Origin: an uncultured Bdellovibrionales bacterium
GTDB lineage: Bacteria > Patescibacteriota > Minisyncoccia > Moranbacterales > UBA2206
Direction of reading: 5' to 3'
DNA length: 64,000 nucleotides
Assembly: GCA_964538685.1 (NCBI GenBank)
Contig: CAZIFD010000002.1
Coordinates: forward strand, 13,255-77,254
Position 1 is the stretch's first letter. Every line of letters starts with the position of its first letter. A model generated the notes under the pieces. That model worked only from the letters and a program-made list of their open reading frames with translations. It did no database searches and was not told the origin of the DNA. The translations under genes were made by a program, and so were the position numbers. Of this stretch, positions 10,613 to 30,218 are shown in pieces.

Positions 10613-10819
10613 ATCGCGACCGAAGGGAGCGTGCGAGGCGCAAGTATCATTCGTCAAAATCCTGCGGATTTTACCCGAAATACATTCGAACTTTGTCCAA
10701 TACACACCGCCAAAATTGAAAATCGGAATCGGAAGCAAAAATGCGGTCGGCGCGAAGCGCCGTCTGTTCTGAATTCCCCCCAAAAAATCCTGAATCTGAA
10801 AGGGTTCGCCAATACAATT

Positions 10820-14229: not shown

Positions 14230-15585
14230 ATGCAAAAAGCAAGCAACAACGAAATCGTAGAAGAAAAACTTCACGTGCAGTATGTTCCGACTGCTGATCT
14301 CAAAACCGCGGACTATAATCCGCGTAAATGGAGCAAGGAAGCTGAAGCTCAGCTTCAGGAGAGTATAATTTCTTATGGACTGGTTGATCCGTTTATCGTG
14401 AATGCCGCTCCACAAAGAAAAAATGTTTTAATCGGAGGACATTTCCGATTGAGTATTGCTAAAAAATTGGGAATCAAAGAGGTGCCAATTGTTTACATTA
14501 ATATTCCAGACTTGGAAAAAGAAAAAGAATTAAACATTAGGTTAAACAAAAACACTGGTGAGTTCGATTGGGAAATGCTGGCCACCTTTGACGAGCAATT
14601 TCTTTCGAAAGTTGGCTTCTCCTCTGAAGAATTAGACGACATTTTCCACATAGAAGATAATCCGGAAGAATTTGATTTAGAAAAAGAACTGGCCAAACTC
14701 AAGATAGATAAAATTGAAATCAAAAAAGGAGATGTTTGGATGTTGGGCGATTCGAAATTATGTTGCGGCGATTCAACCATTGAGGCAGATATGCAAAAAC
14801 TCATGAGAAATGAAAAAGCCGATATGTGCTTTACTGATCCACCTTACATCCTGGATTATCTTCATGGAAAAAAGAAAAATGGAAAGCCAATCACAGGATT
14901 CGGGGCAAAACGTGATCGTAGATATTTGGAAACCGATTCATTACCGGATAATTTTACAGAGTTGTGGATGAAAAACATAAAGACAATATCTAAAGATGAT
15001 TTCCATATTATTGTTTACGAAAATTGGAAGAATCTCAGAATCATCTGGGGCGAAATGGAAAAATATTGGAAAGTAAAAAACATGATAGTTTGGCATCTGC
15101 CCAATCGAGTGCAGGGCTTTGCCGCTAAATATAAGTTCTTCAATAAGCATGATATTGCGATGGTAGGTACTTCTCATGAGAAAATAGAGCTTAACACTGA
15201 TCCGGAAGACAAGATTTTGGAAGAAGAATATCAAACAGCTCTCTACGCTATTTCAGGTAAACCACATTGGGAAGGATATGAGAAAGGCAAAAGGATTTGT
15301 CCAACTGATTTCATTGAATTCAACGCTGATGATGCAAAACACTCTGGTCAAGGAATAATCTTCGGAACAAAACCCCTGGAAATTCTCATTCCATACATCA
15401 AAGTACTTACCAAGCGTGGAGATTTGATTGTGGAGCCATTTGGTGGATCAGGCTCGACTCTCATGGCCGCAACCAAAATGAATAGAAGATGCTACCTTAT
15501 GGAGAAATCGCCAGTATATGCTGAAGTGATAAAAAATAGGTGGGAGAAATTAACAGGCAGGAAGGCTCAAAAGATAAATGGATGA
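14230..15585 (+). CDS. ParB-like nuclease domain fused to a beta-class DNA methyltransferase (phage/plasmid-type orphan MTase)
   Basis: N-terminal ParB/Srx motifs (DYNPRKWSKE ... IGGHFRLSIAKKLG ... VPIVYI). Then motif IV FTDPPYILDY and C-terminal motif I VEPFGGSGSTLMAA. Confidence 0.8.
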   Translation: MQKASNNEIVEEKLHVQYVPTADLKTADYNPRKWSKEAEAQLQESIISYGLVDPFIVNAAPQRKNVLIGGHFRLSIAKKLGIKEVPIVYINIPDLEKEKELNIRLNKNTGEFDWEMLATFDEQFLSKVGFSSEELDDIFHIEDNPEEFDLEKELAKLKIDKIEIKKGDVWMLGDSKLCCGDSTIEADMQKLMRNEKADMCFTDPPYILDYLHGKKKNGKPITGFGAKRDRRYLETDSLPDNFTELWMKNIKTISKDDFHIIVYENWKNLRIIWGEMEKYWKVKNMIVWHLPNRVQGFAAKYKFFNKHDIAMVGTSHEKIELNTDPEDKILEEEYQTALYAISGKPHWEGYEKGKRICPTDFIEFNADDAKHSGQGIIFGTKPLEILIPYIKVLTKRGDLIVEPFGGSGSTLMAATKMNRRCYLMEKSPVYAEVIKNRWEKLTGRKAQKING

Positions 15586-15979
15586 GAAAAATAACTTTGA
15601 TGAAACAATTGAGAAAAGACAGGAAGAATTAAAGCAAGCCATTATTGACCAGCTCAAAGAAACTCCAATTATAACCGTAGCCTGCAAAAGATCAGGCGTT
15701 GGTCGAGCAACTTATTACCGTTGGCGAAGCGAAGATCCACAATTCACCATGGCGATTAATTCCGCCCTTAAAGAAGGTATTGAACTTATAAACGACCTGA
15801 GTGAGTCTCAAATAATCCAGCTTATCAAGGAAAAGAAGCTTCCGGCTATTTCGCTGTGGTTAAAACATAATAATCCTCGTTATGGAGGAAGAAATATGCG
15901 CAGAGATTTGCCTGTTGCTCCTGAGCCTTTAACTGAAGATGAAGAAAAGCTATTCAAAAAAGCTTTGGGGCTAAAATAA
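15578..15979 (+). CDS. Phage terminase small-subunit-like HTH protein
   Basis: HTH ITVACKRSGVGRATYYRWRSEDPQF. Overlaps the MTase gene by 8 bp and is followed directly by the terminase large-subunit ATPase ORF. Confidence 0.5.
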   Translation: MDEKNNFDETIEKRQEELKQAIIDQLKETPIITVACKRSGVGRATYYRWRSEDPQFTMAINSALKEGIELINDLSESQIIQLIKEKKLPAISLWLKHNNPRYGGRNMRRDLPVAPEPLTEDEEKLFKKALGLK

Positions 15980-15988
15980 CAAATCCGT

Positions 15989-17086
15989 ATGTTAGAAGAA
16001 ATAACAGAAAAAGAAATAGCGCAGATAATGCAAAATAAAAGATTAAGGCAACGGCTTGCTTTTGAAGATCCAATGTGGTTTTCCCTTATTTATCTAAGGC
16101 ATCATTTCGAATTTCCCTTTGCTCCTTTTCACATGGAAATGTTTCAGATAATGAAAAATTCAAAATATGAATTGATAGTAACAATGGCCTTCCGAGGATC
16201 GGGAAAATCTACCCTCTTAAACATGGTAAACACCCTATGGTCAATCCTAGGAAAACCGCGGAAAAAATTCGTGGTGATTGTCAGCCAAACGCAAGAACAA
16301 GCTAAAAATCATTTCTCTAACATTAAAGAAGAACTAGTGACCAACGATCTTTTGCGAGAAGATTTTGGACCATACACTGAAGATGAAAGGGAGTGGAAGA
16401 AAACATCCATGGATCTTGTTTATCATGAGTCAAAAATACTGTCGGTTTCTTGGGAGACAGGCATCCGTGGAATCAAATATAAATCGATGAGACCTGATCT
16501 TATCATCTGCGATGACCTTGAAGACAGTTCGGCTAGAGTGGATAAAATAAAACGAGATGAGCTCTATTCTCGCTTTGTCAGTGAGGTTCTTCCCTTGGGA
16601 AGTAAAGATACACGAATTATTGTTTTGGGAAATTTGATTTGTAAAGAATCACTTCTCATGCGACTCAAAGATGATATTGAAAATAATCGGCAAGATGGAA
16701 TATTTCGAGCCTATCCCATAATTGATAATAGCCGCCGTATTTTATGGCCAGAAAGATATAAAAATATTGAGGAGATTAAGAAGATATGGAAAAAAGTGCC
16801 AACAAGTGTATGGGCAAGTGAATATGTTTTAAAATCGATTGGTTTTAATGAAAATGGAGAAATGCCAGTTATTATTCTCGATAATTTATTTGGAAATGAT
16901 GATCCAATTTATAAAAAAGACGTGAATTTATCACATCAGAAAGCTCTTATATCTCAAATGAGAAAGTTTAATATTTCACCACCGAGCAAAAAAGAAATAA
17001 CATTTGTTTACTCAAGTGAAAATGATCCAGAATATTGGCACAACTTTGGAAATATATTTTTGGATAAGCCGAGATCAAAAAAATGA
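15989..17086 (+). CDS. Phage terminase large subunit, ATPase domain only (nuclease domain apparently missing; truncated or degenerate)
   Basis: Walker A FRGSGKST, Walker B LIICDDLED, coupling motif VLGN. At 365 aa it is shorter than complete TerL proteins. Confidence 0.6.
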   Translation: MLEEITEKEIAQIMQNKRLRQRLAFEDPMWFSLIYLRHHFEFPFAPFHMEMFQIMKNSKYELIVTMAFRGSGKSTLLNMVNTLWSILGKPRKKFVVIVSQTQEQAKNHFSNIKEELVTNDLLREDFGPYTEDEREWKKTSMDLVYHESKILSVSWETGIRGIKYKSMRPDLIICDDLEDSSARVDKIKRDELYSRFVSEVLPLGSKDTRIIVLGNLICKESLLMRLKDDIENNRQDGIFRAYPIIDNSRRILWPERYKNIEEIKKIWKKVPTSVWASEYVLKSIGFNENGEMPVIILDNLFGNDDPIYKKDVNLSHQKALISQMRKFNISPPSKKEITFVYSSENDPEYWHNFGNIFLDKPRSKK

Positions 17087-17087
17087 G

Positions 17088-17636
17088 TTATTTATAAAAC
17101 AACTCGTGATTTCTGAGTTCATTCTTTATTTCCAAATAATCTGGCATGAGTTTTTCAACCAGCGACCAGAACCTTCTGGAATGGTTAAATTCTTTTAAAT
17201 GGCATAACTCATGGACAATAATGTAGTCCTGTTGCTTTTTTGGCAGAAAAATAATTTTGTAGTTGAAATTGAGGTTCCTATTTTTAGAACAGCTACCCCA
17301 ACGAGTCTTGTGGTTTTTGATATTTAAAGCATTATATGAAAAAGCAAATTTTTTACTAAATACTTTGATGCGAGCAAGGACTAATTGAACTGCTTCGTCT
17401 TTATGCTTTAAATAGTCATCCTGAGAAAAAGTTCGGATAGCTTTGCTATCAATACTCTTAAAGAAATTTATTTTATCAGTCAGCCATTGTTTTTTGTCTG
17501 CAATGAATTTTTCAATTATTGTTTGATTTATTCCGAAAGGAGTAGTAATAACAACACTGCCATCACAATAAACAGCCAGTCGCATTCTTTTGGCTCTTTT
17601 GCTTTTCTTGATAATGTATTTCGGCTTTCTAATCAT
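17088..17636 (-). CDS. DUF45/YgjP-like (M48/WLM-type) metal-dependent hydrolase, the usual hsdR-downstream partner
   Basis: HELCHLKEFNHSRRFW (HExxH...H). Sits 5 bp downstream of hsdR, a common arrangement in Type I RM loci. Confidence 0.7.
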   Translation of the reverse strand: MIRKPKYIIKKSKRAKRMRLAVYCDGSVVITTPFGINQTIIEKFIADKKQWLTDKINFFKSIDSKAIRTFSQDDYLKHKDEAVQLVLARIKVFSKKFAFSYNALNIKNHKTRWGSCSKNRNLNFNYKIIFLPKKQQDYIIVHELCHLKEFNHSRRFWSLVEKLMPDYLEIKNELRNHELFYK

Positions 17637-17641
17637 ATTAC

Positions 17642-20557
17642 CTAAAATTTCTTTATGATAATATCCACAAGCCTATTCATGAATTTAGGAAAATCTTTCA
17701 CAGTAAACTTTTCCCTATAATCTCTCAGGATAAGCTCCTGTAGTGTTTGTTTTATGTCTTTGATAAACGTATCTCGCTTAGAAGATTCTTGCCATCCAGC
17801 ATCCGTATCATCTTCAATCCTTGCTCTCAGCTCTTTTACAAAATCTTTGATATCATTTTCTTGGGCATCGGAAATAAATTCTTGAGAAATAACATAAAGA
17901 GCATATTCTCTTAAATCCATCCCCAGATTTTTAGCTTCTTCTCCCTTTGTTTTAATATCTTTCATCAATTCTTCATAGCGTCGGATACGCTCTGCCAAAT
18001 CAATCTGATTCTGTTCAAATTCACGGCGAATTGCTCCAAGCCTTTCACTAAATTTCTGATACGCCGGATCCTCATCAAGATTGATAGAAATTTCTTGTTT
18101 CAGCATCTTTTCAAGATTGAGGGCTTTTTCCTCATCACCCATATCCTTTAGGCGTTCCAGCGTATAAAGCTCATTGACTTTAAGCTCACGAAAGTTTTTT
18201 GTGATACCCTCATAGTCTATAATATTACTTTCTCGAATAAGATTCTTAACTTTTTCTCCATACTCTTCCAACAAATAACGATCATCTTCACTACGAAAAT
18301 CTTTCAAAAATGCCAAATAGAAACTTGTTACCCATTCAAAAGGTCGAATATATTGTTTCAGGAACGGATCGGGAGAAAGAAATTCAAACAAGCTTTTTAG
18401 TTTGGCATATTTTTCGGCAAAATATTTTTGCTTGTCTTGATTGTCGATGAAAATCTTCAAACATCTGCGAAGATTATCCATTGAAGGATCTTCGATGTTA
18501 ACTCCTGTAAAAATTTTCATAACGTCGTTCATAACATCAGAAAATTTCGCCTTCACTCGTTCGATATCGATCATAGCCGAATCAATTACATCCTCGTCAA
18601 AGTCCAAAGCATTATAGAGATTTCTGGTAATTCCGTAATAATCAATGATTTTCCCAGCTTCCTTGTTTTTATAAACCCGATTCGTTCTGGCAATCGCCTG
18701 CAGGAGATTATGATCACGTAGGGGTTTATCAAGATACATCACTTGTTCAATTGGCGCATCAAAACCAGTTAACAACATATCGCACACAAGCAAAAACTTT
18801 AGAGATGAATTCGGATCTTTGAACTTTTCAATAATCTGCTCCCGCTCTTTTTTGCTGGTATTATAAATTTTCAAATCGTCAGCATCACTATTTGGATCCC
18901 CAGGAGAATACACAACCGCTGACCATTCTGCCGGAACGAGCTTGTCAAACAATTTTCTATAATCTGCCACCGCTTCGCGATCATAGGCAACTACCTGTGC
19001 CTTGAAACCATTTGGCTCAACATACAATTTATAATGCTCGACAATATCTCTTGCAACTGCCTCCATTCTTTTTGGAAGCTTTACTAATGCCGCCTTCTTG
19101 CCATATTTCTTTACCAATTCCGTCTTTTGTTTGTCAGACAAGTCACTCGCAATCTCATCGAATTGCTTATCTAGCTTCTCTTCATCAATGGAAAATTTAG
19201 AAAGACGTGCCTCGTAGGTAACTGGGATTGTCGCTCCATCATCAATGGCCTCTTGAATTGAGTAATAATCCAGATAGCGTTTTCCTTCACCTTCATAATT
19301 TCTGAAAGTGTTGGTATGAGTTTTATCTACTGGTGTGCCGGTAAACCCAAAGAAGAATGCTTTTTTGAAAGCATTTCTCATGTTTATTCCTGAAACTCCC
19401 TCATCTCCACGATGAGCCTCATCGGAAAGAATTATTACATTCTCATCCAAATTTTCGACTTCGTTGCCAAGCTCCGAAAACTTTTGAATAGTCGTGATAA
19501 ATATTCCGCGTTCCGGTGATTGTATTTTTTCTTCCAAGTCTTTTCGCGAGGTAACACGGACAATATTTTTTCCTCCGGCATTGGTAAAAGTATCAAATAT
19601 TTGTTGATCCAAGTCTACTCGATCCACCAAGATGAAGATTTTTGGATTTTGCAATAATTTATTAAAACGCAATTTCCAAGCCGTAAAAAACATTGTGAGA
19701 GTTTTTCCTGAACCTTGTGTGTGCCAAATAAGCCCTTGGTGTTTTTCCTTGTTCACTACACGATTAACAATCTTATTTGTGGCTCTTAGTTGTTGATAGC
19801 GAGCAATCTTTTTAACCAGTTTCTCTTTTTCTTTTTCAAACAAAATGAAATTTCCGACAATATCCAATAGATTAGGCTTGTTAAGTAGAACAAAGAGAGT
19901 CATTTCCAATTCCCCTCCCAGTTCTTTTTCCAAGTCCTCGTCTCGCCACTGTAAAAAGTATTGTTTTGGCGCATAAGTTGCTCCGTAAACAGTTTTTAGT
20001 CCGTCACTGGCAATATTAAAGCAGTTTGGGAAAAATAATTTGCGTGCCACTTTTTCATATCTTTTAATCTGATCAATTCCATTCTCAAAGGTCACACTTT
20101 CCGAAGCAGTTGGGCTCTTAGCTTCAATATCAACTAGCGGCAGACCATTTACAAAAATCATGACATCCGGTCGGATGTTTTCGGTGTCACCTTCGAAATA
20201 GAATTGATTAGTGGCAACAAAGTGATTATTTTCAGGATTTTCAAAATCAAGTAATTTATAATCCTGCATTTTTCCAGTCTTTGAACTTTTCAAGTTGATT
20301 CCTTCGCGCAAAGCCTTTAGAAATCCTTCATTAGTGTCAATTTTGTTTACTTCTCTAACTACACTGACAATCTCATCATCATTTGCGTCAGGATTATTTT
20401 TTTTGATTGCATTCTCAAGTAAGGACTTTATTATATATTCACTTTCAAGACTCCTAAGTTTTGAAAATTCTTCGGGTTTAATATATTCATAATCAAGTTT
20501 GTCTTTTATGAATTTGATTATGTAATTTTCAATTGTTACTTGTTCGTTAAATTTCAT
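17642..20557 (-). CDS. hsdR: Type I restriction enzyme R subunit
   Basis: N-terminal nuclease region. SF2 helicase motifs TQGSGKTLTM (motif I) and ILSDEAHRG (DEAH). 971 aa. Confidence 0.9.
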   Translation of the reverse strand: MKFNEQVTIENYIIKFIKDKLDYEYIKPEEFSKLRSLESEYIIKSLLENAIKKNNPDANDDEIVSVVREVNKIDTNEGFLKALREGINLKSSKTGKMQDYKLLDFENPENNHFVATNQFYFEGDTENIRPDVMIFVNGLPLVDIEAKSPTASESVTFENGIDQIKRYEKVARKLFFPNCFNIASDGLKTVYGATYAPKQYFLQWRDEDLEKELGGELEMTLFVLLNKPNLLDIVGNFILFEKEKEKLVKKIARYQQLRATNKIVNRVVNKEKHQGLIWHTQGSGKTLTMFFTAWKLRFNKLLQNPKIFILVDRVDLDQQIFDTFTNAGGKNIVRVTSRKDLEEKIQSPERGIFITTIQKFSELGNEVENLDENVIILSDEAHRGDEGVSGINMRNAFKKAFFFGFTGTPVDKTHTNTFRNYEGEGKRYLDYYSIQEAIDDGATIPVTYEARLSKFSIDEEKLDKQFDEIASDLSDKQKTELVKKYGKKAALVKLPKRMEAVARDIVEHYKLYVEPNGFKAQVVAYDREAVADYRKLFDKLVPAEWSAVVYSPGDPNSDADDLKIYNTSKKEREQIIEKFKDPNSSLKFLLVCDMLLTGFDAPIEQVMYLDKPLRDHNLLQAIARTNRVYKNKEAGKIIDYYGITRNLYNALDFDEDVIDSAMIDIERVKAKFSDVMNDVMKIFTGVNIEDPSMDNLRRCLKIFIDNQDKQKYFAEKYAKLKSLFEFLSPDPFLKQYIRPFEWVTSFYLAFLKDFRSEDDRYLLEEYGEKVKNLIRESNIIDYEGITKNFRELKVNELYTLERLKDMGDEEKALNLEKMLKQEISINLDEDPAYQKFSERLGAIRREFEQNQIDLAERIRRYEELMKDIKTKGEEAKNLGMDLREYALYVISQEFISDAQENDIKDFVKELRARIEDDTDAGWQESSKRDTFIKDIKQTLQELILRDYREKFTVKDFPKFMNRLVDIIIKKF

Positions 20558-20964
20558 AATTTTTTGCTTAAGAGAAAGTCGACTATTTCTAAGCCTTCAT
20601 TGTATTTATCGCAAATTTCTTCTTCCAATTTACTATAATCATCTTTTTCAATAATTGTATGCACTATATTATTTCTAAAATCAATATAACTATTAAGACT
20701 TTCGAATTCTTTTTTATTCAAATAACTAGAAACACGCGATTCACGTGCGGCTTGACCAAAATTTCTTGGTGCTTTTAATCCAACTATTTTGTTTTTCTTA
20801 TTGCATTCACAACTAAATTCCCGTATTAATCCCTCGATGACACTGGCCTGCAAAAGAAAAGCCTGTATAAATCTAGGTTCTTGATCTTCATCTGGAGCAA
20901 ATAAGAAGTCTCCTTGAGCTCTGTTTATTAGCAACTTTGCATTTTCAACAATTTCTTTTTTCAT
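20554..20964 (-). CDS. Hypothetical small protein with an HEPN-like Rx4H motif (DFRNNIVHT)
   Basis: 136 aa, typical HEPN size. Located between hsdS and hsdR. Overlaps hsdR by 4 bp. Confidence 0.35.
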   Translation of the reverse strand: MKKEIVENAKLLINRAQGDFLFAPDEDQEPRFIQAFLLQASVIEGLIREFSCECNKKNKIVGLKAPRNFGQAARESRVSSYLNKKEFESLNSYIDFRNNIVHTIIEKDDYSKLEEEICDKYNEGLEIVDFLLSKKL

Positions 20965-20966
20965 AT

Positions 20967-21260
20967 CTACTTTTTCAGCAGTCTGTTTCTAGGTGGTTTT
21001 TCTTGTTTAATAATTTTCTTTTCCAATATCTCAGCCTTTTCGACAGTTCCCGTTTCAATAACTCTAAAATTTGTACCACCTTTAAACTGACCTTTATGCT
21101 CGTAAACTCTATCTCCAAGACGACCCGCCTTTGCTTTTCCAACATAAAGCAACTCGTCTTTAGCATTTACTATTTTATACACACCAGCACTTTTACCAGA
21201 CAATTTTTCTACGTTTGTCTTGGTGATTTGTCTCTTTGGACTGAAGCTTTGTTTCTTCAT
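20967..21260 (-). CDS. Small standalone GIY-YIG nuclease-domain protein
   Basis: GVYKIVN...LLYVGKA...RLGDRVYEH...EKAEILEKKII...PPRN matches the GIY-YIG core (GIY, YIG, Arg, His/Glu, C-terminal E..LI..P.N). 97 aa. Confidence 0.7.
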   Translation of the reverse strand: MKKQSFSPKRQITKTNVEKLSGKSAGVYKIVNAKDELLYVGKAKAGRLGDRVYEHKGQFKGGTNFRVIETGTVEKAEILEKKIIKQEKPPRNRLLKK

Positions 21261-21347
21261 AGATTTTTTATTAATTTATTATTTACCCTAACTTCCCAAC
21301 TCAAAGATCTTGCGTCAGACCTTTTTTTGAGTTGAGCAGTTTAGATT

Positions 21348-22094
21348 TTAACTTTTAAATTTTTTTCTTATCATATTAAAAATTTTATCTGAAAATTTTT
21401 CAAAAGAATTTCTTGCCTCTTTATAGTCAGCCTCTTTCAGCTTAATCGGATCATTAATATTATATCTTTTTTTAATCTCTATATTCCTGATTTGCTTTAA
21501 AAACTTATCATCAATTATCGCTGCATTATGAATTATTACGTTTCGCAAAGCTTGATACTCAATAAGTTTATTCTTCAATTCATCTTCGACAATTAAATCA
21601 AGATGCAAATATTCTTTCAAGAAATTAATAGTGCTTTGTAAGTCTTGGAAATTATATTTTTCTCTTAAAGATGATCCGATTATCAAGCTGCCTATTGTTG
21701 GAGATGAATATTTTAAAATATTTGGATCAAAGCTAATTTGCTTTTTTTCCGGCCAATTAATTATATCAGGATAATTATCTATGATATTTTTAATCAAGTC
21801 GTTCATAAATGACTCGAATGTAGCAATTACTAAAACAACTGACTGGTTATAAATAATCTTGTATTTTTCAATCAATATGGGATGGTTTTTGATATTTCTT
21901 ATCTGATCAATAACGATATCTAATTTTTGCTTGTAGGGTAAAAAAGCAGACATCCTTTCGTTTTCTCTTTTTAGGTTTCCAAGCATTTCCAAAAGAATAT
22001 TTCCCGCGTCTGAGCCAATTTCGCTTAATTGATCAATTTGTTTAAGATTATTCTTAAAAGTTTCTAAAACATTATTGATTTTTTCCATATACAC
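21348..22094 (-). CDS. Hypothetical protein with an HEPN-like Rx4H motif (ALRNVIIHN)
   Basis: 248 aa. Overlaps the hsdS 3' end by 23 bp. No other recognisable domain. Confidence 0.35.
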   Translation of the reverse strand: MYMEKINNVLETFKNNLKQIDQLSEIGSDAGNILLEMLGNLKRENERMSAFLPYKQKLDIVIDQIRNIKNHPILIEKYKIIYNQSVVLVIATFESFMNDLIKNIIDNYPDIINWPEKKQISFDPNILKYSSPTIGSLIIGSSLREKYNFQDLQSTINFLKEYLHLDLIVEDELKNKLIEYQALRNVIIHNAAIIDDKFLKQIRNIEIKKRYNINDPIKLKEADYKEARNSFEKFSDKIFNMIRKKFKS

Positions 22095-23271
22095 TAATCC
22101 TCACTTTCCCACTCAAAAGATCCTGCGCCAGACCCTTTTTAAGTTGGGTAAGTTTAGATTTTAACTTTTTATTAATTGAAATTTTTTCATCAATGGCTGA
22201 AAGAATTTCTGCAATTTTATCTTGTTCATCTTTTTCCGGTTTCAAAATCAATAGGGGTCTAAGTTTTTCTAGGTTTATGTTTTTTTGTGCAGACTGGGTT
22301 GAAATCTTGTTTAAATAATCTTTCCTTGTCCTCAAAAAATACTCCAAAAAAACACTATTCATTTGATAATTGGAAGTTATTCCTACTAAGCTGTCAGGAA
22401 AACATGAATCAAATTCAAGTATTCCAGTATCTCCAATATTAGCGGCTATAGTTAAAACTATTGTTCCTTTCTTGAACATTCTGCTAACCTTTAATCCATT
22501 TTCATTTAGTGTTTGGCTATACTTTGTAATTTTACCATTTGAACCTATAACATCACCTGTTTGAATAAATGGAATATCACCGCCATAAAATCTTGCGTCA
22601 TTCCTTGGTCTATGAGAAAACTTACCCCTTTCAACCTGAGCAATTTCCTCTAATTTAACAACGTCCCATTCCTCCGGAATTTCACCAAGCTTAGTTTTTT
22701 TGAATTTTTTATGACCAATTCCGCGCGTAAAAAGATCCTGCATCAAACCTTTTTTCAGTTTCCCCGCTTTATCAATCACTTCTTGCGTTTTCAAAATATC
22801 CTCATCTACAGATCCAAGAATTTCAGCGATTTTTTGTTGCTCAGTTTTTGATTCTGGCATCCAAATATCAAGGTTTTGATACTGGGAAATATAATATCGT
22901 TTATGGTTTGCAATAGGAAATTTTATAAGATTTATTACTTCATAAATAAATTTCAGATCAGAACTTTGATCTTTGCATTTCAAAATTTTGATTGCCGACG
23001 ACTTTACCTTGAATGGAAAATCTACGAACTTGCTATCGGTAGTAAAATCGTCAAATATAATGACTGGAAAATCTTTATATATTCCAAAATCTTCATCGGT
23101 ATATCCCAAAATAAAAGATTTATTAGCAGTCAAGACAGGTGTTTTATTATTGGAATCATAATTTGTGCTTTTTACAATATACTTATCCGGCCTTTCATAA
23201 TCCAAAACGTCACTTATTTTTCTAAGTGTCCATCCTTGGGGAGTATTTTTTTGTGCAGTATTATTTTTCAT
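22072..23271 (-). CDS. hsdS: Type I restriction-modification specificity subunit
   Basis: Two target-recognition domains separated by conserved repeats (LKKGLMQDLFTRG ... LKKGLAQDLLSGKVRI). 399 aa. Confidence 0.8.
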   Translation of the reverse strand: MKNNTAQKNTPQGWTLRKISDVLDYERPDKYIVKSTNYDSNNKTPVLTANKSFILGYTDEDFGIYKDFPVIIFDDFTTDSKFVDFPFKVKSSAIKILKCKDQSSDLKFIYEVINLIKFPIANHKRYYISQYQNLDIWMPESKTEQQKIAEILGSVDEDILKTQEVIDKAGKLKKGLMQDLFTRGIGHKKFKKTKLGEIPEEWDVVKLEEIAQVERGKFSHRPRNDARFYGGDIPFIQTGDVIGSNGKITKYSQTLNENGLKVSRMFKKGTIVLTIAANIGDTGILEFDSCFPDSLVGITSNYQMNSVFLEYFLRTRKDYLNKISTQSAQKNINLEKLRPLLILKPEKDEQDKIAEILSAIDEKISINKKLKSKLTQLKKGLAQDLLSGKVRISVYGKNQ

Positions 23272-23275
23272 AATG

Positions 23276-24058
23276 TTATTGATTGTCTTGCGACCTTAAT
23301 GCTTCCGCAAGTTCTCCTGGGGAAAATATTTTTATTTTCAATCCGATATCGTCAAATTCCTTTTGGTTTTGATTGATTCTGTTTAAAATAGTTTCTTTAT
23401 CTAGTGTCAGAAAATAGTCTAGTTCAGATTTTTCTGCTTGAAAAATATGTTCCGCATCGTCAATATCGAAAAATGATTTTAGTCTTGAAAAAAGCGGGTT
23501 CTCCACACTACCTCCTCCTCCGAAAGTTGAAGTCCCGAAGGTAACTGAACCAAAACAGGCAGATGTATGCTCAATTAAATTTGCCGACGGCACATTAGTA
23601 ATCAAATTGCAAAAGAATAAAATTAAACCTTTCTTTTTTTCATCATCTATTTTTTGTATTTCTTCCTTGGCTTTGGATGAAGTAAAAAATTTTATTTCAT
23701 CCTTTTGATATCGTTCAGAAATCTCAGCTAATGATTGAATTTCTTTTTCTTTGACCCTAAAGTCATTTATCCTCGAAATAATATTTGTATCCAAATAAAC
23801 TTTTGGTGTATTATCAGTTTTTTCATATTCAATCTCAATATGTCCCAATCTGGAATGATCATAATAAATCGCATTAACAACCTTTAAAAAATTCTTTATG
23901 CCAGCAGAATTACTGTGTTCTAGAATGTCACCCTCGACTATGGGCAAGGTCACATCATTAATATAAATTTTGTTTTGCACGCTAGCTTTAATATTTTTTA
24001 TCCTGCTGGAATCTTTTTTTATTAAAACTAAATTGTCTGTCATGAAATGATCCATCAT
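23276..24058 (-). CDS. Two-domain protein: unknown N-terminal domain (~85 aa) + PIN-like nuclease domain
   Basis: VYLDTNIISRIN (PIN beta-1 with the first Asp), a later Glu, DIDDAEHIF and FLTLDK acidic positions. A Gly-rich linker (GTSTFGGGGS) is also present. Confidence 0.45.
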   Translation of the reverse strand: MMDHFMTDNLVLIKKDSSRIKNIKASVQNKIYINDVTLPIVEGDILEHSNSAGIKNFLKVVNAIYYDHSRLGHIEIEYEKTDNTPKVYLDTNIISRINDFRVKEKEIQSLAEISERYQKDEIKFFTSSKAKEEIQKIDDEKKKGLILFFCNLITNVPSANLIEHTSACFGSVTFGTSTFGGGGSVENPLFSRLKSFFDIDDAEHIFQAEKSELDYFLTLDKETILNRINQNQKEFDDIGLKIKIFSPGELAEALRSQDNQ

Positions 24059-24864
24059 ATATTTTTATTCCCATTTACTTTTTGAGCTATGTCTGCAATT
24101 GCCTTTTTAACTAAGGATTCTTTTTTATTCTTCACATCTTCCTCAATTTTCTGATCAAGAATAAGGATGATCGATAGCTTTAGGGCAGGAAAATAGGCAA
24201 GGCATTCCTCTTCACTTAATTCATGAACTCCTTTGCTTAAAATTCCATAAACTACTTTCATTTCCACCAACTGACTTGGGAGGTAATCTTTTAGAAAATC
24301 AACTTTTTCATCCATTCTTTTTTTCAAGAAATCATCATCAGAAATTCCTAACTTATCTTTATGCTCTTTATATGTATTCCAAATAACATTTTCAAAAATA
24401 CGTCTTAAATACACGAGAGATCCTGCTCCGGCGCCGTGTGCCATGAGGCCAATTGATTTTTTTAAGTCATGCAGATCCTGCTTGGGCAACACCTTATCAT
24501 ATTTTTTACCAAGTTCAGCAAACTGTATGTCAGCAATAGAAGGAAACTGTCCTACTTTCACAATGATTTCATTATTATCATACACGAAAAATCTTAGAAC
24601 ATCATTGCTTTTTCTTTTACAAGTTAAGGTAATTTTATAAAAATTATTAAAACTTGATTCATATTGTCCATTAACACGACAGGAGTAAATTTTGTATGTA
24701 GTATCAATTCCATTTGCTGCACTGTATGCATCTACATCACCTTCGTGAATATCCTCCTCTAATTGCTCTTTTTTTATAAAATCGTAAAGAGGAGTTTCAA
24801 AATAAAAGTCGTGCTTATTAACATTTTTTAATTCTTCTGCTGGCTGTTCTTTTTCTTCTGGCAT
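24055..24864 (-). CDS. Hypothetical protein (269 aa), translationally coupled to the downstream PIN gene by a 4-bp overlap
   Basis: No confident motif. The C-terminal half (LVYLRRIFENVIW ... SKGVHELSEEE) is faintly reminiscent of HEPN/DUF4145-type domains found in RM loci. Confidence 0.3.
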   Translation of the reverse strand: MPEEKEQPAEELKNVNKHDFYFETPLYDFIKKEQLEEDIHEGDVDAYSAANGIDTTYKIYSCRVNGQYESSFNNFYKITLTCKRKSNDVLRFFVYDNNEIIVKVGQFPSIADIQFAELGKKYDKVLPKQDLHDLKKSIGLMAHGAGAGSLVYLRRIFENVIWNTYKEHKDKLGISDDDFLKKRMDEKVDFLKDYLPSQLVEMKVVYGILSKGVHELSEEECLAYFPALKLSIILILDQKIEEDVKNKKESLVKKAIADIAQKVNGNKNI

Positions 24865-24890
24865 ATTTTTAGCAAATTAGTTTTTTAGAG

Positions 24891-26195
24891 TTATAGCAAA
24901 ACTACGGACTGTTTTGCTCGCGCAACACAAACCCCGTCTTTTATTGCATAGCATTCAGCATAATGTCTGCCTTTATATTTTGTGCTTTCGGGGACATTTC
25001 TTGTTTGATCACAAGTAATTTCTCCTCTTGGTTCCGTGCAATTGTCATCATTTTTTACCTTCCAATTGTAAGTACATCCATCTATGCGATGTAGTCTTTT
25101 GAATTTCAGGTATCTGCCAGAATCAATCACCCCTTGATTATTTAATGGCCTTTGGGTATTGCCAGCTTTATCTGTGATATCGGCAGATATAGAAAATTGA
25201 GAATATTGTGGGTCAGTAAAAGTTGGTATCTTTTTATCAAATAAATATTCCTCTGCAAGCGATTTTCTCTTATGCAGATTTACAGTCAACAAAAAATCAA
25301 TACTATCTTTTTCGTCCAAATTTTCAAGTTTTATCAAAAAATAATCTCGCACTTGTTTAATTTTCTCTTTTTGCTCTGGGGTAAATTTTTCAAGGTAATC
25401 ATCAATAAATTTATCGCCATTCGCCCTATCCTTTATTTGATTCGGATTGTTTATAATATCTGGCAAATCGACGAAAAATTTAAATATCGCATCGAATACG
25501 CATGTGTCAGAAAATTGTTGAAATAATTTTGTGATGACTTGCTCAAGATGAAACGACTTCAATTTCAATTTCTCATCGAAATCATTTAGGTTATTTTTCC
25601 ACTTTTTAACAAGTTTTACGACCTTCCTAAAGTCTTGATTTTGTCCCACCAGTGTAGCAACCTTGATATAGCCCCTAGGATCAGATTTTATCCAGTCATG
25701 AATATTATTAGAATCCCAAGTCATACTTTTTCTAAAATCATGATTTTTTTCTTTTAAAATCTCCGGAACCATATAGGTATCCTGCTGAAATTCGTTTTTC
25801 CCATAAGAATATGCAGGAACAATATCTACGGAAAATACTTCTTCATCATCTTTAGAATATATAACTGTAACTGAGTGAGCCTGTAGCGATGAACTTACAG
25901 TAAGACTTGTCGGATTCACATAATCACTATTAATTTGACTAAACAATTTTTTAAGCGTTTCCGATGGATCATGACTATTTTCACTCCATTGACCTAAAAT
26001 GTACAAAATATCAAGATCATGAATAGGCGTAATGGAAGTAAAGCGAGGATATGAACCAATTTGAATACAGTTATCTATTCCAAACAAATCATTAAATGAT
26101 TGATAAATTTTGTTTACCAAGTTCTGTTCAGAGGTACTCGGGGATAGACTCCTTGCAAACTCCCTCAATTTTGAATTGAATTTATCTTTTTTCAT
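24891..26195 (-). CDS. Pol-beta-superfamily nucleotidyltransferase of the CD-NTase/SMODS type (candidate CBASS-like cyclase)
   Basis: IGSYPRFTSITPIHDLDILYI matches the GS-x9-13-[DE]h[DE]h pattern. FSVDIVPAYSY matches the third acidic residue in an hDhhPa strand. Cys-rich C-terminal tail. 434 aa. Confidence 0.5.
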   Translation of the reverse strand: MKKDKFNSKLREFARSLSPSTSEQNLVNKIYQSFNDLFGIDNCIQIGSYPRFTSITPIHDLDILYILGQWSENSHDPSETLKKLFSQINSDYVNPTSLTVSSSLQAHSVTVIYSKDDEEVFSVDIVPAYSYGKNEFQQDTYMVPEILKEKNHDFRKSMTWDSNNIHDWIKSDPRGYIKVATLVGQNQDFRKVVKLVKKWKNNLNDFDEKLKLKSFHLEQVITKLFQQFSDTCVFDAIFKFFVDLPDIINNPNQIKDRANGDKFIDDYLEKFTPEQKEKIKQVRDYFLIKLENLDEKDSIDFLLTVNLHKRKSLAEEYLFDKKIPTFTDPQYSQFSISADITDKAGNTQRPLNNQGVIDSGRYLKFKRLHRIDGCTYNWKVKNDDNCTEPRGEITCDQTRNVPESTKYKGRHYAECYAIKDGVCVARAKQSVVLL

Positions 26196-26727
26196 AACTT
26201 GTGCTAAGCAAGGTAGTTATAATATCATTCATGAGGCGGCCGCGCATATTAACAACCGTGGTAAATTGTTCATTATTGATCGCTTTCATCATTTCCTTGG
26301 AAATAACATTTTCTGGCGGAGAGAATTCCGGAAAATAGAATATAAATCCTGTGGCAGCATTTTTATACGAAAGTATTTTTTTTATATCATCCTCGCTAAA
26401 GGATTGATAATGAACCAGCACTAGGCTCTCATTCTTTATTTTAGTTAATGATTGATTGGTGATTTGCTCAATATTTTTTTCTCTAAAAACCCCGGTATCA
26501 ATAAGATCAGTCTTAATATTTCTATAAGTCTCATCATTAGCCGCAATTTTTATTTTTCTGGTCCATCTGCCAAATCCAAGTCTTAAAAATAATGGGAAGA
26601 TGCCCATAGACCAACTTATAATTGCCCAAATAAATAATCCTATCGCAAAAATAGTTGTTAAAACACCAATAATGTCTATAAAAAGTTTAATAAAATTTAA
26701 CAAAGTCATAAATTTATTTGATCCCAA
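26182..26727 (-). CDS. Two-TM-helix membrane protein with a ~125-aa cytoplasmic domain (candidate Cap15/SLATT-like CBASS effector)
   Basis: Two N-terminal hydrophobic helices (LLNFIKLFIDIIGVLTTIFAIGLFIWAIISWSMGIFPLFL), then a soluble domain. Overlaps hsdM (14 bp) and the NTase gene (14 bp). Confidence 0.4.
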   Translation of the reverse strand: MGSNKFMTLLNFIKLFIDIIGVLTTIFAIGLFIWAIISWSMGIFPLFLRLGFGRWTRKIKIAANDETYRNIKTDLIDTGVFREKNIEQITNQSLTKIKNESLVLVHYQSFSEDDIKKILSYKNAATGFIFYFPEFSPPENVISKEMMKAINNEQFTTVVNMRGRLMNDIITTLLSTSYEKR

Positions 26728-28414
26728 GATCTTTTAAATAATTATCTACTTTTTTATCTGCTATATCTCGTTCTTTTTCAATTTCTTTCAGTTCCTTCCA
26801 AGCAGATTTCACATCCACAATTTCCTCAACGTCTCCGTTTTCTACGTACCGACGGACATTTAGGTTGAAGCCATTCTCTTCGATTTCCTTGAGAGGAACC
26901 ACTTTGGCATATTTCTCGATGTTGCGATATCCCTCATAAGCCGAAACTATCTTTTCAATATCTTTTTTCCTGAGACGATTCTGATTTTTTCCTTCTTCAA
27001 AGTCCTTTTCCGCATCGATAATCAGAATCTTGTTCCTATGCGTCTCCGGCTTGTTTTTATTGAAAATAATGATCGCTACCGGAATGCCAGTCCCATAAAA
27101 AAGTTTAGGAGGAAGTGCGATAATAGCCTCAATCAAATCATTTTTGATGATTTGTTCACGGATAGCTCCTTCTGCTCCGCCACGAAAGAGAACGCCATGA
27201 GGAAGTAATATTCCGGCTCGTCCGTTTTCGTTCATTGATTTGATCATGTGCAAAACAAAAGCATAATCAGCCTTTTTCTCTGGCGGCATTTCATAACCAG
27301 AGAGTCTGCCATATTTATCAGACTTGAACATTTCAGATTCCCACTCTTTGATTGAGTAGGGTGGGTTTGCAACGCAGATATCGAATGTCTTGAGTGAACC
27401 GTCCAGGTTTAAGAATTTCGGATCAGCCAAAGTATCTCCACGCTGGATATCAGCACTATCAAGTCCGTGTAAAAACATATTGATCTTCGCAATCGCAAAA
27501 GTCCCGATGTTTATTTCTTGTCCATAAAGATAAAGCGAGCGTGCTTTTCTCTCGCCAGCTTTTTCCTTGAGATAATGATAGGCTTCCAAAAGAAAACCAC
27601 CTGATCCAACCGTCATGTCATAAATATGATCTTTCTCGTGAGGTTTTAGGATTTGAATGATAACTCGCTCGGTTTCGCGCGGAGAATAAAATTCACCACC
27701 TTTTTTCCCAGCATCGGCCGCAAATTGCTCAATGAGGTATTCATAAGCATCGCCGAGCAGATCCGAACTGATATAGCTATCTCCAAAATTGTACTGTGAA
27801 AAATGATTAACCAGCCTTTGCAGTGTTTCATTTGGAAATTTATCTTTATTGGCAAAATCAAGATCATCAAAAATTTTGTCGAGCTTTGGGCTATTGGCGT
27901 TTGTCAGTTTGTCAAAAATTTCATTAAGTCTCTGTCCGATTCCTCCGGCTTGTTTTTGAATAACTTCCCAGCGACAATCTTTGGGGACTTGGAAGCGGTG
28001 ATTGTAATCAGCGCGTGCGATTGTTTCATCATGAAATTCATCCAGCACTTTTTTATATTCTTCATCCCAAGTATCGCTGATACGTTTATAAAAGAGTAAA
28101 CCGAAAATATATTTTTTGTAATCTGAGCTGTCTATTTTTCCTCTTAAAATATCAGCACTTCTCCAAAGGAATTGTTTGAGGTGAGCCAAGGTCATTTTTT
28201 CGCCAGTCCCGCTAATTTCACTGAGAACTGCCCCCATCTTTTTATCGATAAATTTTTCCAGATCTTCTATTCTATATTTTCTGTCTGCCCTGGTTCCGAC
28301 TCGCAGCGGCGTTATCTTTCCCTCTTTTTCCCAATTGCGAAGAGTGTCCTTGTTTATTCCAAGAAGTTCGGATGCCTGTTTAATTGAGAGTAATTTTGGC
28401 GAATTTTTGCTCAT
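26714..28414 (-). CDS. hsdM: Type I RM N6-adenine methyltransferase subunit with an N-terminal MerR/excisionase-type HTH extension
   Basis: N-terminus LLSIKQASELLGINKDTLRNWEKEGKITP (HTH). HsdM N-domain. Motif I DMTVGSGGFL. Motif IV VANPPYS. 566 aa. Confidence 0.9.
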   Translation of the reverse strand: MSKNSPKLLSIKQASELLGINKDTLRNWEKEGKITPLRVGTRADRKYRIEDLEKFIDKKMGAVLSEISGTGEKMTLAHLKQFLWRSADILRGKIDSSDYKKYIFGLLFYKRISDTWDEEYKKVLDEFHDETIARADYNHRFQVPKDCRWEVIQKQAGGIGQRLNEIFDKLTNANSPKLDKIFDDLDFANKDKFPNETLQRLVNHFSQYNFGDSYISSDLLGDAYEYLIEQFAADAGKKGGEFYSPRETERVIIQILKPHEKDHIYDMTVGSGGFLLEAYHYLKEKAGERKARSLYLYGQEINIGTFAIAKINMFLHGLDSADIQRGDTLADPKFLNLDGSLKTFDICVANPPYSIKEWESEMFKSDKYGRLSGYEMPPEKKADYAFVLHMIKSMNENGRAGILLPHGVLFRGGAEGAIREQIIKNDLIEAIIALPPKLFYGTGIPVAIIIFNKNKPETHRNKILIIDAEKDFEEGKNQNRLRKKDIEKIVSAYEGYRNIEKYAKVVPLKEIEENGFNLNVRRYVENGDVEEIVDVKSAWKELKEIEKERDIADKKVDNYLKDLGIK

Positions 28415-28690
28415 AGTTATGATTTACAAAATTTATGTTTTTTCTTACCTTTTCATATGTTAGCACGACAACTTTAATCTTGTCAATACTTTTTACAAAA
28501 ATTCTGATGATTTCATAGGTTATTATATTTAAGTGCTATTGAGCAGAAAGACACTCTTTTTGTAAGTTTATGAGGATTTAAGGCTATTTAAAGCCAATAA
28601 GTTATCAACAGGTAACCTACTTGGGACGCTCTGGACTCTTTCATGAGAGTGCGTCATTCATTGAGTTGTAACAAATAAGACCAAAATCCT

Positions 28691-30019
28691 ATGGATTACC
28701 CAAAAACCAACCAAATAGGGGCGATTACCAAATCAGAGCCAATTGCGATGCCTGTCCGATATTGTCTCTACGCCCGCAAAAGTACCGAGAGTGAGGAGCG
28801 CCAAATACTCTCTATTGATTCCCAGATCAAGGAGATGCTTCAACTGGCAGAGCGTGAAAGCTTGGAGATAGTTGAAATAAAGCGCGAATCGCATAGTGCC
28901 AAGGAAACAGGGCAAAGACCGATTTTTAATGAAATTGTTGAAGAAATAAAACAAGGAAAATTCAACGGTATTCTGACTTGGGCACCGGATAGAATTTCCA
29001 GAAATGCTGGAGATCTTGGAAAAATAGTAGATCTGATGGACAGCGGAGCTTTAAAAGAAATCAGAACTTATGGGCAACGATTTACTGATTCGCCAAATGA
29101 AAAATTTCTACTAATGATTTTGGGATCTCAAGCTAAACTAGAAAATGATAATCGTGGCATCAATGTAAAGCGAGGACTTCGTGCCAGATGCGAAATGGGA
29201 CTATGGCCAACGGTGGCACCGCTTGGATATCTCAATCAAAGGCACATGGACAAAAAATGCCAGCTGATTCAGGATCCACAAAGAGCGTCAGTTATAAAAA
29301 AGATATTTGAAAAAGTAGCTTATGAACATTATTCGGGCAGGAAAATATATCATTGGTTAAGATTTGAGCTAAATTTCTATACCAGAGGAAATAAGCCACT
29401 GACATTAGGTGGGGTGTATCGGGTTCTTGAAAATCCTTTCTACTATGGAGTCTTTGAATACCCAGTCAAAAGCGGAAATTGGTATACCGGAAAACATGAA
29501 CCGATAATCACCCAGGAGATATTCGAAAAAGCCCAGGCCTGGCTAAAAAGAGATAAAATTGTCCGGGAAAATAAAGAGTTCGCCTTTACTAAATTGTTCA
29601 CCTGCGGATATTGCGGATCGGGAATATCCGCCGAAGAAAAATACAAACAACTGAAAGACGGTACACACGCCAGATATATCTACTATTCCTGCTCGAGAGC
29701 CAGAGACCGGCATTGCAAAAACAAATATATCCGCGAGGAAGAATTGATCACCGAGCTTCTAAAAATAATCGATCAAATGAATATCAATGAACTAGGAATG
29801 AGGCAGAAATTGGAAGATGAAATCAATCGCTTCAATATTTTTCAAAAATCAGTGATGGGAGAAAAACACAAAATTCAAAATACCAAAGATACAGATATCC
29901 GAAATTATGCCAAATACCTACTTAAAGAGGGGTCGGTATCGGAAAAAAGAGAACTTCTCGGAAATCTAAGATCGAGGATAATATACAAAGATAAAAAACT
30001 GGAGCTGGTGAAAGAATAG
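28691..30019 (+). CDS. Large serine recombinase (integrase), adjacent to tRNA-Ser
   Basis: RYCLYARKSTESEE (catalytic Ser motif), resolvase and recombinase domains, Cys-rich zinc ribbon (CGYCGSG ... YYSCSRARDRHC). 442 aa. Ends 112 bp from the tRNA-Ser 3' end. Confidence 0.85.
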   Translation: MDYPKTNQIGAITKSEPIAMPVRYCLYARKSTESEERQILSIDSQIKEMLQLAERESLEIVEIKRESHSAKETGQRPIFNEIVEEIKQGKFNGILTWAPDRISRNAGDLGKIVDLMDSGALKEIRTYGQRFTDSPNEKFLLMILGSQAKLENDNRGINVKRGLRARCEMGLWPTVAPLGYLNQRHMDKKCQLIQDPQRASVIKKIFEKVAYEHYSGRKIYHWLRFELNFYTRGNKPLTLGGVYRVLENPFYYGVFEYPVKSGNWYTGKHEPIITQEIFEKAQAWLKRDKIVRENKEFAFTKLFTCGYCGSGISAEEKYKQLKDGTHARYIYYSCSRARDRHCKNKYIREEELITELLKIIDQMNINELGMRQKLEDEINRFNIFQKSVMGEKHKIQNTKDTDIRNYAKYLLKEGSVSEKRELLGNLRSRIIYKDKKLELVKE

Positions 30020-30058: not shown

Positions 30059-30131
30059 TTCAATTTTTTATGTCTTCGGGTCGCTCATTCGTCTCGATAG
30101 AATGGGTCTATCCGATAAAAAATTGTCGATG

Positions 30132-30218
30132 CGGAGAGAGGGAGATTCGAACTCCCGAGACCCGTTAAGATCTACTTGCTTTCCAAGCAAGCGCACTCGA
30201 CCACTATGCGATCTCTCC
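30132..30218 (-). tRNA. tRNA-Ser (anticodon GGA), class II with long variable arm; no encoded CCA
   Basis: Reverse complement GGAGAGATCGCATAGTGGTCGAGTGCGCTTGCTTGGAAAGCAAGTAGATCTTAACGGGTCTCGGGAGTTCGAATCTCCCTCTCTCCG. 7-bp acceptor stem. Anticodon stem CTTGC/GCAAG with loop TTGGAAA. Long variable arm. T-arm GGGAG-TTCGAAT-CTCCC. Confidence 0.85.

Follow-up and report, generated by a model that had tools for sequence, protein, structure and literature searches.

We describe here a pair of defence genes in a 64,000-nucleotide stretch of an uncultured bacterial genome (GenBank assembly GCA_964538685.1, contig CAZIFD010000002.1, positions 13,255 to 77,254 of the forward strand; hereafter the window), which very probably constitutes a two-gene type I cyclic oligonucleotide-based antiphage signalling system (CBASS), an abortive-infection module carried as cargo in a type I restriction-modification (R-M) operon on an integrated mobile element. 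The pair sits between hsdM and hsdS and encodes a small membrane effector followed by a predicted nucleotidyltransferase of the cGAS/DncV-like kind (CD-NTase). An initial annotation, made from the letters of the DNA alone, had proposed a minimal type I CBASS in which a CD-NTase is paired with a membrane effector and the two genes are translationally coupled, and this proposal is borne out by the matches of both proteins to models of the PADLOC collection and by the lack of accessory genes. Both open reading frames are present on the minus strand where they had been placed, and as each has hundreds of homologues, both are real genes rather than chance reading frames. As a CBASS the locus is ordinary, since catalogues of type I CBASS already include both protein families; what deserves further attention is the recurrent intercalation of the pair behind R-M methyltransferase genes.

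The cyclase matches the PADLOC model PDLC00785 over residues 1-433 of 434 (E 1.3e-165), as well as 21 other PADLOC cyclase models more weakly. Two Pfam domains exceed their gathering scores, SMODS with 29.8 bits against 26.5 and AGS_C (PF18134) with 53.9 bits against 26.7, and the NCBIfam model CBASS_cyclase_b is matched at E 1.9e-26, the CBASS models of this collection being matched below their equivalog (curated) cut-offs. The nearest solved structures by sequence are the nucleotidyltransferase entries 6p8u, 6p82 and 6p8j (E 7e-10 with the single sequence and 1.5e-13 with a family profile), which we take to be CdnD of P. aeruginosa, and E. coli CdnC (6p80), so that the closest entries are presumably clade D and clade C enzymes, respectively. 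The motifs that had first drawn attention to the gene are found at residues 47-48 (GS), 60-62 (DLD) and 123-128 (VDIVPA); 674 homologues were retrieved, and G47, S48, D60, D62 and D124 are invariant across an alignment of 54 of them. Scans of the protein with PADLOC, Pfam and NCBIfam returned no non-signalling nucleotidyltransferase family, and both the Cdn entries of the PDB and the CBASS cyclases of NCBIfam group it with the signalling cyclases, as opposed to polyA-polymerase-like or aminoglycoside nucleotidyltransferases. Judged by its sequence, the protein is thus a CD-NTase with an intact catalytic site. About 22 of its residues (approximately 146-167) form a variable insertion, which is missing from PDB entry 6p8u in a pairwise alignment and is poorly conserved in the family; phage prohead proteases have been reported to cleave a surface loop and thereby activate CD-NTases of clades A, D and G (PMC12991175), and the insertion may be a loop of this kind.

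The cysteine-rich tail attributed to this protein is there in composition but not in the sense implied: five cysteines do occur in the last 61 residues, but C415 and C423 alone are invariant, and the tail corresponds to AGS-C, a known domain with an Ig-like fold. Modelled with AlphaFold2 from the family alignment, residues 296-434 are all beta, with high confidence (predicted local distance difference test score, pLDDT, of 94.9), and their fold matches the solved AGS-C domain of EcPycC, which identifies the tail as AGS-C rather than a metal-binding cluster; the latter was considered and rejected, given the conservation of only two of the five tail cysteines and the Ig-like all-beta fold. SMODS and AGS-C were defined by Burroughs et al. 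in 2015 (NAR), whose abstract reportedly describes such systems as 'sometimes combined with' R-M and CRISPR. Approximately 40% of type I CBASS operons carry a cyclase fused to AGS-C, a domain restricted to type I systems, correlated with the phage families that are restricted, and described as having a molecular role that is not known (bioRxiv 10.1101/2023.05.21.541620). In the same work the fusions are placed in clades B, H, F and G, with clades C and D lacking AGS-C in type I systems, and the tested operons with AGS-C cyclases defend against phage and behave as classical CBASS; the type I CBASS listed elsewhere include a lactococcal one whose cyclase is an NTase/AGS-C protein (PMC11381338). 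A 2020 review applies the label 'AGS-C' to the helical C-terminal lobe of DncV (PMC7288161), a usage that we judged irrelevant to the Ig-like domain.

The effector matches the PADLOC model 'Effector 1TM' (PDLC00664; E 1.8e-50) over residues 9-181 of 181, numbered from an upstream TTG start, and over positions 4-174 of the 174 in the model. It also matches two PADLOC models derived from type III CRISPR neighbourhoods, C3a59 (E 1.3e-34) and Mem_04 (E 2.7e-06), the latter described in the collection as possibly a CARF domain that has diverged too far to be recognised and covering residues 143-175 of the effector only. A search of 5.8 billion proteins returned 108 relatives, and the family is small: a set of 1.84 billion representatives contains 275 of its clusters at 50% identity, nearly all with lengths of 160-185 residues. 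Full-length homologues nearly all have 172-182 residues and begin at the position of an ATG at 26709, the start that gene calling in the source assembly had also chosen, 4 nt past the stop codon of hsdM. The effector therefore most likely starts at this ATG and does not overlap hsdM. Two 14-nt overlaps had been proposed for the gene; that with the cyclase gene is real, but that with hsdM exists only from the TTG at 26727, a start that is probably wrong, and is best seen as an artefact of it.

In an AlphaFold2 model of the effector (pLDDT 86.5), a long helix (residues 3-35) and two short ones (38-50) precede a five-stranded (beta/alpha)5 domain. The two transmembrane (TM) helices predicted by the initial annotation are probably one: the hydrophobic stretch runs unbroken over residues 1-46, and a single membrane helix followed by an interfacial segment probably fits the modelled long helix and the PADLOC name '1TM' better than a tight two-helix hairpin. 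A cluster of basic residues directly after the hydrophobic part (R43, R48, R51 and K52) suggests, by the positive-inside rule, that the soluble domain is cytosolic. According to the model, this soluble part is a CheY/flavodoxin-like alpha/beta domain with a conserved Arg-rich loop face; the initial annotation had named the lack of a ligand-binding fold as grounds for refutation, and this case did not arise. The family has 22 invariant residues, many of which are located where strands 3, 4 and 5 end C-terminally or immediately behind these points, within the motifs H100-Y101-Q-S-F, Y125-x-P-x-F and N154-x-R156-G-R158-L-x-N161-D162. In this class of folds the C-terminal strand ends are the usual ligand face, and the conserved Arg-rich pocket formed here would suit a phosphate-bearing ligand, making it a candidate ligand face.

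The identity of the soluble domain was examined against several known classes. A functional receiver (REC) domain was rejected, since strand 3 ends in H100-Y101 and not in a phospho-acceptor aspartate. The earlier comparison with Cap15/SLATT-type effectors does not hold either: Cap15 was rejected because the soluble domain is (beta/alpha)5 and not a beta-barrel and is preceded by what is probably a single long membrane helix, and SLATT because neither the query nor any of 64 family members matches the Pfam SLATT family. More generally, the effector itself belongs to no Pfam family, and none, SLATT, CARF and SAVED included, recurs in these 64 members at E values up to 1. A Foldseek comparison of the model with the PDB gave no match at E <= 0.001 and returned only generic Ras, REC and DNPH1-like folds, which are alpha/beta three-layer sandwiches; known nucleotide receptors and solved CRISPR or CBASS effectors were absent from the fold matches, and a PDB sequence search with the effector yielded nothing meaningful.

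Among 164 related loci fetched from species-representative genomes and metagenomes, an AGS-C cyclase gene follows the effector gene, with gene overlap, in 95, and the overlap has the same 14-nt geometry in 73 of these 95 loci, most of the others having shorter overlaps. Elsewhere the gene downstream encodes a cyclase of 255-261 residues (PDLC00803, E 2.4e-80), as in Legionella maceachernii, or one of 320-334 residues (PDLC00823), or the effector is directly preceded by a gene for a cyclase of 290-316 residues (PDLC00822), so that the family pairs with at least four CD-NTase families. In four further loci (L078, L056, L072 and L028) the effector homologues adjoin Cmr6-type RAMP or CARF/Csx1 genes of type III CRISPR loci and would therefore be ancillary effectors of these systems, a use that hints at a cyclic oligoadenylate-like ligand. 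Rare proteins carry the soluble domain behind other N-terminal modules that replace the membrane helix: a TIR domain in P0338 (Pfam TIR_2, E 1.4e-11), a TIR/nucleoside-deoxyribosyltransferase-like region with no Pfam match in P0358, and a truncated reverse-transcriptase fragment in P0276, which is possibly a chimera of gene calling. With both its signal generators and its output modules exchanged in this way, the soluble domain acts like a receptor for nucleotide second messengers. The nearest relatives of the locus are found in metagenome-assembled genomes of Kaiserbacteria, Paceibacterota, Moraniibacteriota and other Patescibacteria, so that the host, judged by these relatives of a mobile element, is probably a member of that group; a single distant effector homologue on viral contigs indicates that the pair is not typically phage-borne.

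The assignment to type I agrees with the gene content, as Cap2, Cap3, HORMA and TRIP13 find no PADLOC or Pfam match among the eight operon and flank proteins and do not appear in the gene lists of the related loci. We propose a mechanism in which hsdM, the effector, the cyclase, hsdS and hsdR would be expressed together from the hsdM promoter, which is the most likely arrangement given that they share one strand with 4-nt gaps or overlaps, and in which translation of the effector and cyclase genes would be coupled; sequence and fold establish these relations between the genes and the identity of the cyclase. The subsequent steps are modelled on established CBASS. A phage cue late in infection would switch on the cyclase, seen here as an intact-site cGAS/DncV-like enzyme fused to a domain that the literature links to the range of phages responded to, and the enzyme would then produce a cyclic oligonucleotide, possibly of the cyclic oligoadenylate type, as may be guessed from the occurrence of the same effector family in type III CRISPR loci. 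The nucleotide would bind the Arg-rich loop face of the cytosolic CheY-like domain, upon which the effector may oligomerise through its N-terminal membrane helix and damage the membrane, stopping the cell before phage release. R-M would then act as the first layer of defence and CBASS as the second.

Several points weigh against this account. We infer the product of the cyclase, its trigger and the toxicity of the effector alike, and the fold matches of the effector are generic (REC, Ras, DNPH1), with none specific to a known nucleotide receptor. The guess of a cA3-like (cyclic triadenylate-like) product is weakened by the nearest solved structures, presumably of clades C and D, where type I systems lack AGS-C. 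We know of no solved structure of, or published mechanism for, the '1TM' effector class, and the literature yielded no experimentally tested CBASS from Patescibacteria.

The position of the pair behind a methyltransferase gene is not peculiar to the window. Of the 71 loci in which the effector is followed by an AGS-C cyclase, 39 have an R-M gene as the directly upstream neighbour on the same strand, versus 2 of 62 with another partner, a comparison corrected for relatedness by no more than dereplication at 85% identity. When the upstream same-strand neighbours of the 95 AGS-C loci were scanned with Pfam, 40 of 57 proved to be DNA methyltransferases (21 N6_Mtase and 19 N6_N4_Mtase), the others including HsdS and HSDR_N_2 proteins, and the 42 neighbours on the downstream side of the cyclase include 12 hsdS and 5 ResIII genes. 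Where effector identity is 60% or more and enough upstream sequence is available, an hsdM ends 5-105 nt before the effector in 7 of 9 relatives, and the HsdM proteins of these close relatives fall into two lineages, of which one is 67-82% and the other about 37% identical to that of the window. The complete order hsdM-[pair]-hsdS-hsdR-ygjP recurs in L002, L004, L005, L166 and L167, a type III order mod-[pair]-res in L101, L142 and L168, a variant order hsdM-hsdS-[pair]-hsdR in L128, and in L130 the pair accompanies a fused HSDR_N_2/N6_Mtase enzyme. Three further cyclase homologues, chosen independently (L166-L168), are all embedded in R-M operons. Dereplication at 85% effector identity leaves 46 informative lineages, of which 20 have a methyltransferase gene directly upstream and 26 do not, and the embedded members are scattered across a neighbour-joining tree of the cyclases, which points to repeated gain or loss rather than to one inherited arrangement. 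Literature searches combining CBASS with hsdM or with Patescibacteria turned up no paper on an R-M-embedded arrangement.

A cautious reading of this association is that a promoterless toxic two-gene cassette profits from a tightly controlled methylase promoter and travels with R-M operons, in which embedded defence genes are a known feature. A bolder one, which we consider unlikely, is that the pair is functionally wired to R-M as a guard in the manner of PrrC, with AGS-C binding the methyltransferase or the assembled R-M complex and the cyclase firing during restriction or once that complex has been put out of action by an anti-restriction protein of a phage. The enrichment upstream of the pair with an AGS-C cyclase, the methyltransferase, hsdS and ResIII neighbours, the spread of the pattern over type I, type III and fused enzymes, its recurrence in 20 lineages scattered over the cyclase tree and the three additional embedded look-ups all speak for such wiring, and prrC provides a precedent, being embedded in an hsd locus of type IC and activated by inhibition of EcoPrrI (PMC12707154). 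However, the 26 lineages with no adjacent methyltransferase indicate that the pair can evidently stand alone, and the very diversity of the partners, drawn from unrelated R-M types, argues against a single specific protein-protein interface. Moreover, a shared, tightly controlled methylase promoter is a sufficient and mundane reason for the position of a toxic cassette, and many embedded defence genes are known from R-M operons, that of the window holding five others.

A logic inverted relative to CBASS, similar to that of Panoptes, appears very improbable. A nucleotide made constitutively would keep the effector off, and phage sponges or phosphodiesterases that deplete it would release the effector. 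The CARF-TM effector of type II Panoptes is indeed held inactive by cA3 (PMC13577387), and the order of the genes in the window, with the effector gene preceding and overlapping the cyclase gene, would ensure that both products are always made together; but Panoptes relies on a minimal CRISPR polymerase (mCpol) rather than a CD-NTase, the membrane domain of CARF-TM is apparently at the opposite end (PMC13577387), both window proteins match CBASS models, and the AGS-C cyclase operons tested so far are classical CBASS (bioRxiv 10.1101/2023.05.21.541620). Finally, the idea of a non-signalling nucleotidyltransferase beside an unrelated small membrane protein, or of a decayed, inactive cassette, could draw on the SMODS score barely over its cut-off and on the NCBIfam CBASS matches below theirs, but is already close to refuted by the full-length PADLOC match, the absence of any such nucleotidyltransferase family from the scans, the intact and invariant catalytic residues and the conservation of the uninterrupted, overlapping pair in 95 loci. 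A type I CBASS module carried in an R-M operon is thus the reading that we retain.

Table 1. Coordinates of the CBASS pair, the surrounding R-M operon and the mobile-element genes in the window.
Feature	Position in window	Strand	Description
hsdM	28414..26714	-	566 aa; NCBIfam TIGR00497 E 1.3e-82; Pfam N6_Mtase, HsdM_N, HTH_17, MerR
Membrane effector	26709..26182 (ATG start; alternative TTG 26727)	-	175 aa (181 aa from TTG)
Effector N-terminal hydrophobic segment	26709..26572	-	residues 1-46
Effector predicted cytosolic CheY/flavodoxin-like sensor domain	26562..26185	-	residues ~50-175
Effector stop / cyclase start overlap	26182..26195	-	14 nt, read from sequence
CD-NTase (predicted CBASS oligonucleotide cyclase)	26195..24891	-	434 aa; SMODS core and C-terminal AGS-C
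Cyclase catalytic motifs	25824..26057	-	G47-S48 26057..26052; D60-L-D62 26018..26010; D124 (VDIVPA) 25826..25824
AGS-C domain of cyclase	24903..25217	-	residues 327-431; Ig-like beta sandwich
u269	24864..24055	-	269 aa; only phrog_25239 matched
u260	24058..23276	-	260 aa; N-terminal 74 aa match phrog_16834
hsdS (specificity subunit)	23271..22072	-	399 aa; Pfam Methylase_S; NCBIfam type I specificity subunit
u248	21348-22094	-	248 aa; R-x4-H motif (ALRNVIIHN) typical of HEPN
GIY-YIG protein gene	between u248 and hsdR	-	97 aa; PADLOC UzuA at E 0.016 only
u136	between GIY-YIG gene and hsdR	-	136 aa; weak HEPN_RiboL-PSP match; motif FRNNIVH
hsdR (restriction subunit)	20557..17642	-	971 aa; Pfam HSDR_N, ResIII, T1R_D3-like
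YgjP-like metallopeptidase gene	17636..17088	-	after hsdR; YgjP-like E 6.8e-44
Promoter-like site upstream of hsdM	28457..28486	-	TTGACA, 18 nt, TG-TAACAT; best of region
Large serine recombinase gene	28691..30019		adjoins tRNA-Ser
tRNA-Ser gene	30131..30218	-	
Second large serine recombinase	10631-12394		10.6-17.1 kb mobile-element block
ParB-DNA methyltransferase	14230-15585		10.6-17.1 kb mobile-element block
Small terminase-like gene	15578-15979		10.6-17.1 kb mobile-element block
Truncated large terminase, ATPase part only	15989-17086		10.6-17.1 kb mobile-element block

The pair belongs to a tightly packed block of minus-strand genes that extends from 28414 to 17088 with small gaps or overlaps throughout, and in which five further genes (u269, u260, u248, the GIY-YIG gene and u136; 20554-24864) are intercalated in the R-M operon (Table 1). 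None of the five matches a PADLOC family at E <= 0.001. A role of u269 and u260 as accessory CBASS genes was rejected: tblastn across the 164 fetched loci, of which L001 is the window's own contig, found no homologues of either, and in the closest relatives hsdS directly follows the cyclase gene. Neither of the two belongs to a Pfam or PADLOC family, and by eye the remainder of u260 looks PIN-like. A homologue of u248 is present in L142 (11982-12761; BLASTP E 3e-20, 27% identity), whose type III R-M operon has the order mod-effector-cyclase-u248 homologue-res, so that the u248 gene family accompanies the effector/AGS-C cyclase pair in two types of R-M operon. A scan of 16900-28800 for promoters and terminators gave counts that do not exceed those of shuffled sequence, and the site at 28457..28486 is, as promoter-like sites are no commoner than in shuffles, a candidate operon promoter backed by weak evidence. 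The HsdM of the window carries an additional N-terminal MerR/HTH_17 (excisionase-like) DNA-binding domain, which accompanies a length of 566 residues as compared with about 502 in relatives and may serve self-regulation of the operon.

The surroundings of the operon are those of a mobile element. Its GC content is 29-33% across 20-27 kb versus 35-41% in the flanks, and the serine recombinases, the tRNA-Ser gene, the terminase and ParB genes, together with related loci that combine the same kinds of genes, argue that the R-M/CBASS island is cargo of an integrated element. A search of the window for repeats of the tRNA-Ser region that could be attachment sites gave only matches of chance length, 12-14 nt. 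Unrelated to the CBASS pair, a full-length match to LOOT RNA (Rfam RF03000) at 757-884 on the plus strand scores 60.4 bits, above the gathering cut-off of 46.4.

Some of the related loci show features of their own. A second, short SMODS-type gene (264 residues) lies at 14866-15660 of L004, just past the ygjP-like gene. A half-size hsdS of about 190 residues precedes hsdM in L002 (5916-6494), L004 (5917-6489) and L166 (2375-2950), in addition to the full hsdS after the cyclase gene, and in L002 and L004 a serine recombinase is located nearby; this arrangement could reflect hsdS shuffling. In L167 (GCA_002749055.1, Gracilibacteria), whose R-M/CBASS architecture is otherwise the same, translation of the cyclase gene with table 11 differs from the database protein, as would be in line with the alternative code that Gracilibacteria use.

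The locus is of use in three respects. It provides a clean example of the '1TM' class, which the assigned fold, the candidate ligand face and the links to CRISPR and TIR proteins make experimentally approachable, and it draws attention to the AGS-C pair being far more regular behind methyltransferase genes than the same effector with other cyclases. If a physical or regulatory link to R-M were true, it would answer how type I CBASS is triggered and what AGS-C does: by reading the state of the R-M system, AGS-C would convert a failed first defence into an abortive-infection signal, the domain would gain a concrete ligand and this CBASS subtype a defined trigger, and R-M-coupled CBASS would be the nucleotide-signalling counterpart of PrrC or PARIS. 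Thirdly, the window presents a layered R-M and CBASS island on a mobile element in what is probably a genome of the Patescibacteria type, a group whose defence has hardly been studied.

Among known systems, PrrC of the EcoprrI type IC hsd locus shares with the window pair the intercalation of an abortive-infection gene in a type I R-M operon with which it is co-transcribed, but PrrC is a tRNA nuclease restrained by the R-M proteins, whereas the window holds a predicted nucleotide-signalling pair with at most a putative physical link to the R-M proteins. Cam1, Csx23 and CARF-TM, of type III CRISPR systems and Panoptes, combine a membrane segment with a cytosolic sensor of cyclic oligoadenylates, an arrangement that the window effector is predicted to resemble and whose CRISPR use it may share, as its homologues stand beside Cmr6/Csx1 genes and it matches C3a59 and Mem_04 itself; it matches no CARF or SAVED model, and its membrane part is N-terminal whereas that of Panoptes CARF-TM is apparently C-terminal (PMC13577387). 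Cap15 and SLATT effectors are likewise small membrane proteins encoded beside a CD-NTase, and in Cap15 an N-terminal membrane part likewise precedes a soluble nucleotide sensor, but the predicted sensor of the window protein is (beta/alpha)5 rather than a beta-barrel, SLATT is not matched, and there is probably one membrane helix. The closest likeness of the system as a whole is to AGS-C type I CBASS (classification of Millman et al. 2020; Richmond-Buccola et al., bioRxiv 10.1101/2023.05.21.541620), with which it shares an operon of cyclase and effector devoid of Cap2/3 and HORMA/TRIP13, intact GS, DxD and D residues, a C-terminal Ig-like AGS-C domain of about 18 kDa and a membrane effector; in contrast to the tested examples, which are gammaproteobacterial and employ 2TM, 4TM, SLATT, Cap5 or comparable effectors, the window pair has a '1TM' effector and lies inside an R-M operon of a genome that is probably of the Patescibacteria type. 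With the '1TM' class of PADLOC and Millman (PDLC00664), finally, the effector agrees in both size and architecture, and the present analysis adds to that class a predicted CheY/flavodoxin-like fold, a set of invariant residues, adjacency to type III CRISPR genes and rare fusions to TIR domains.

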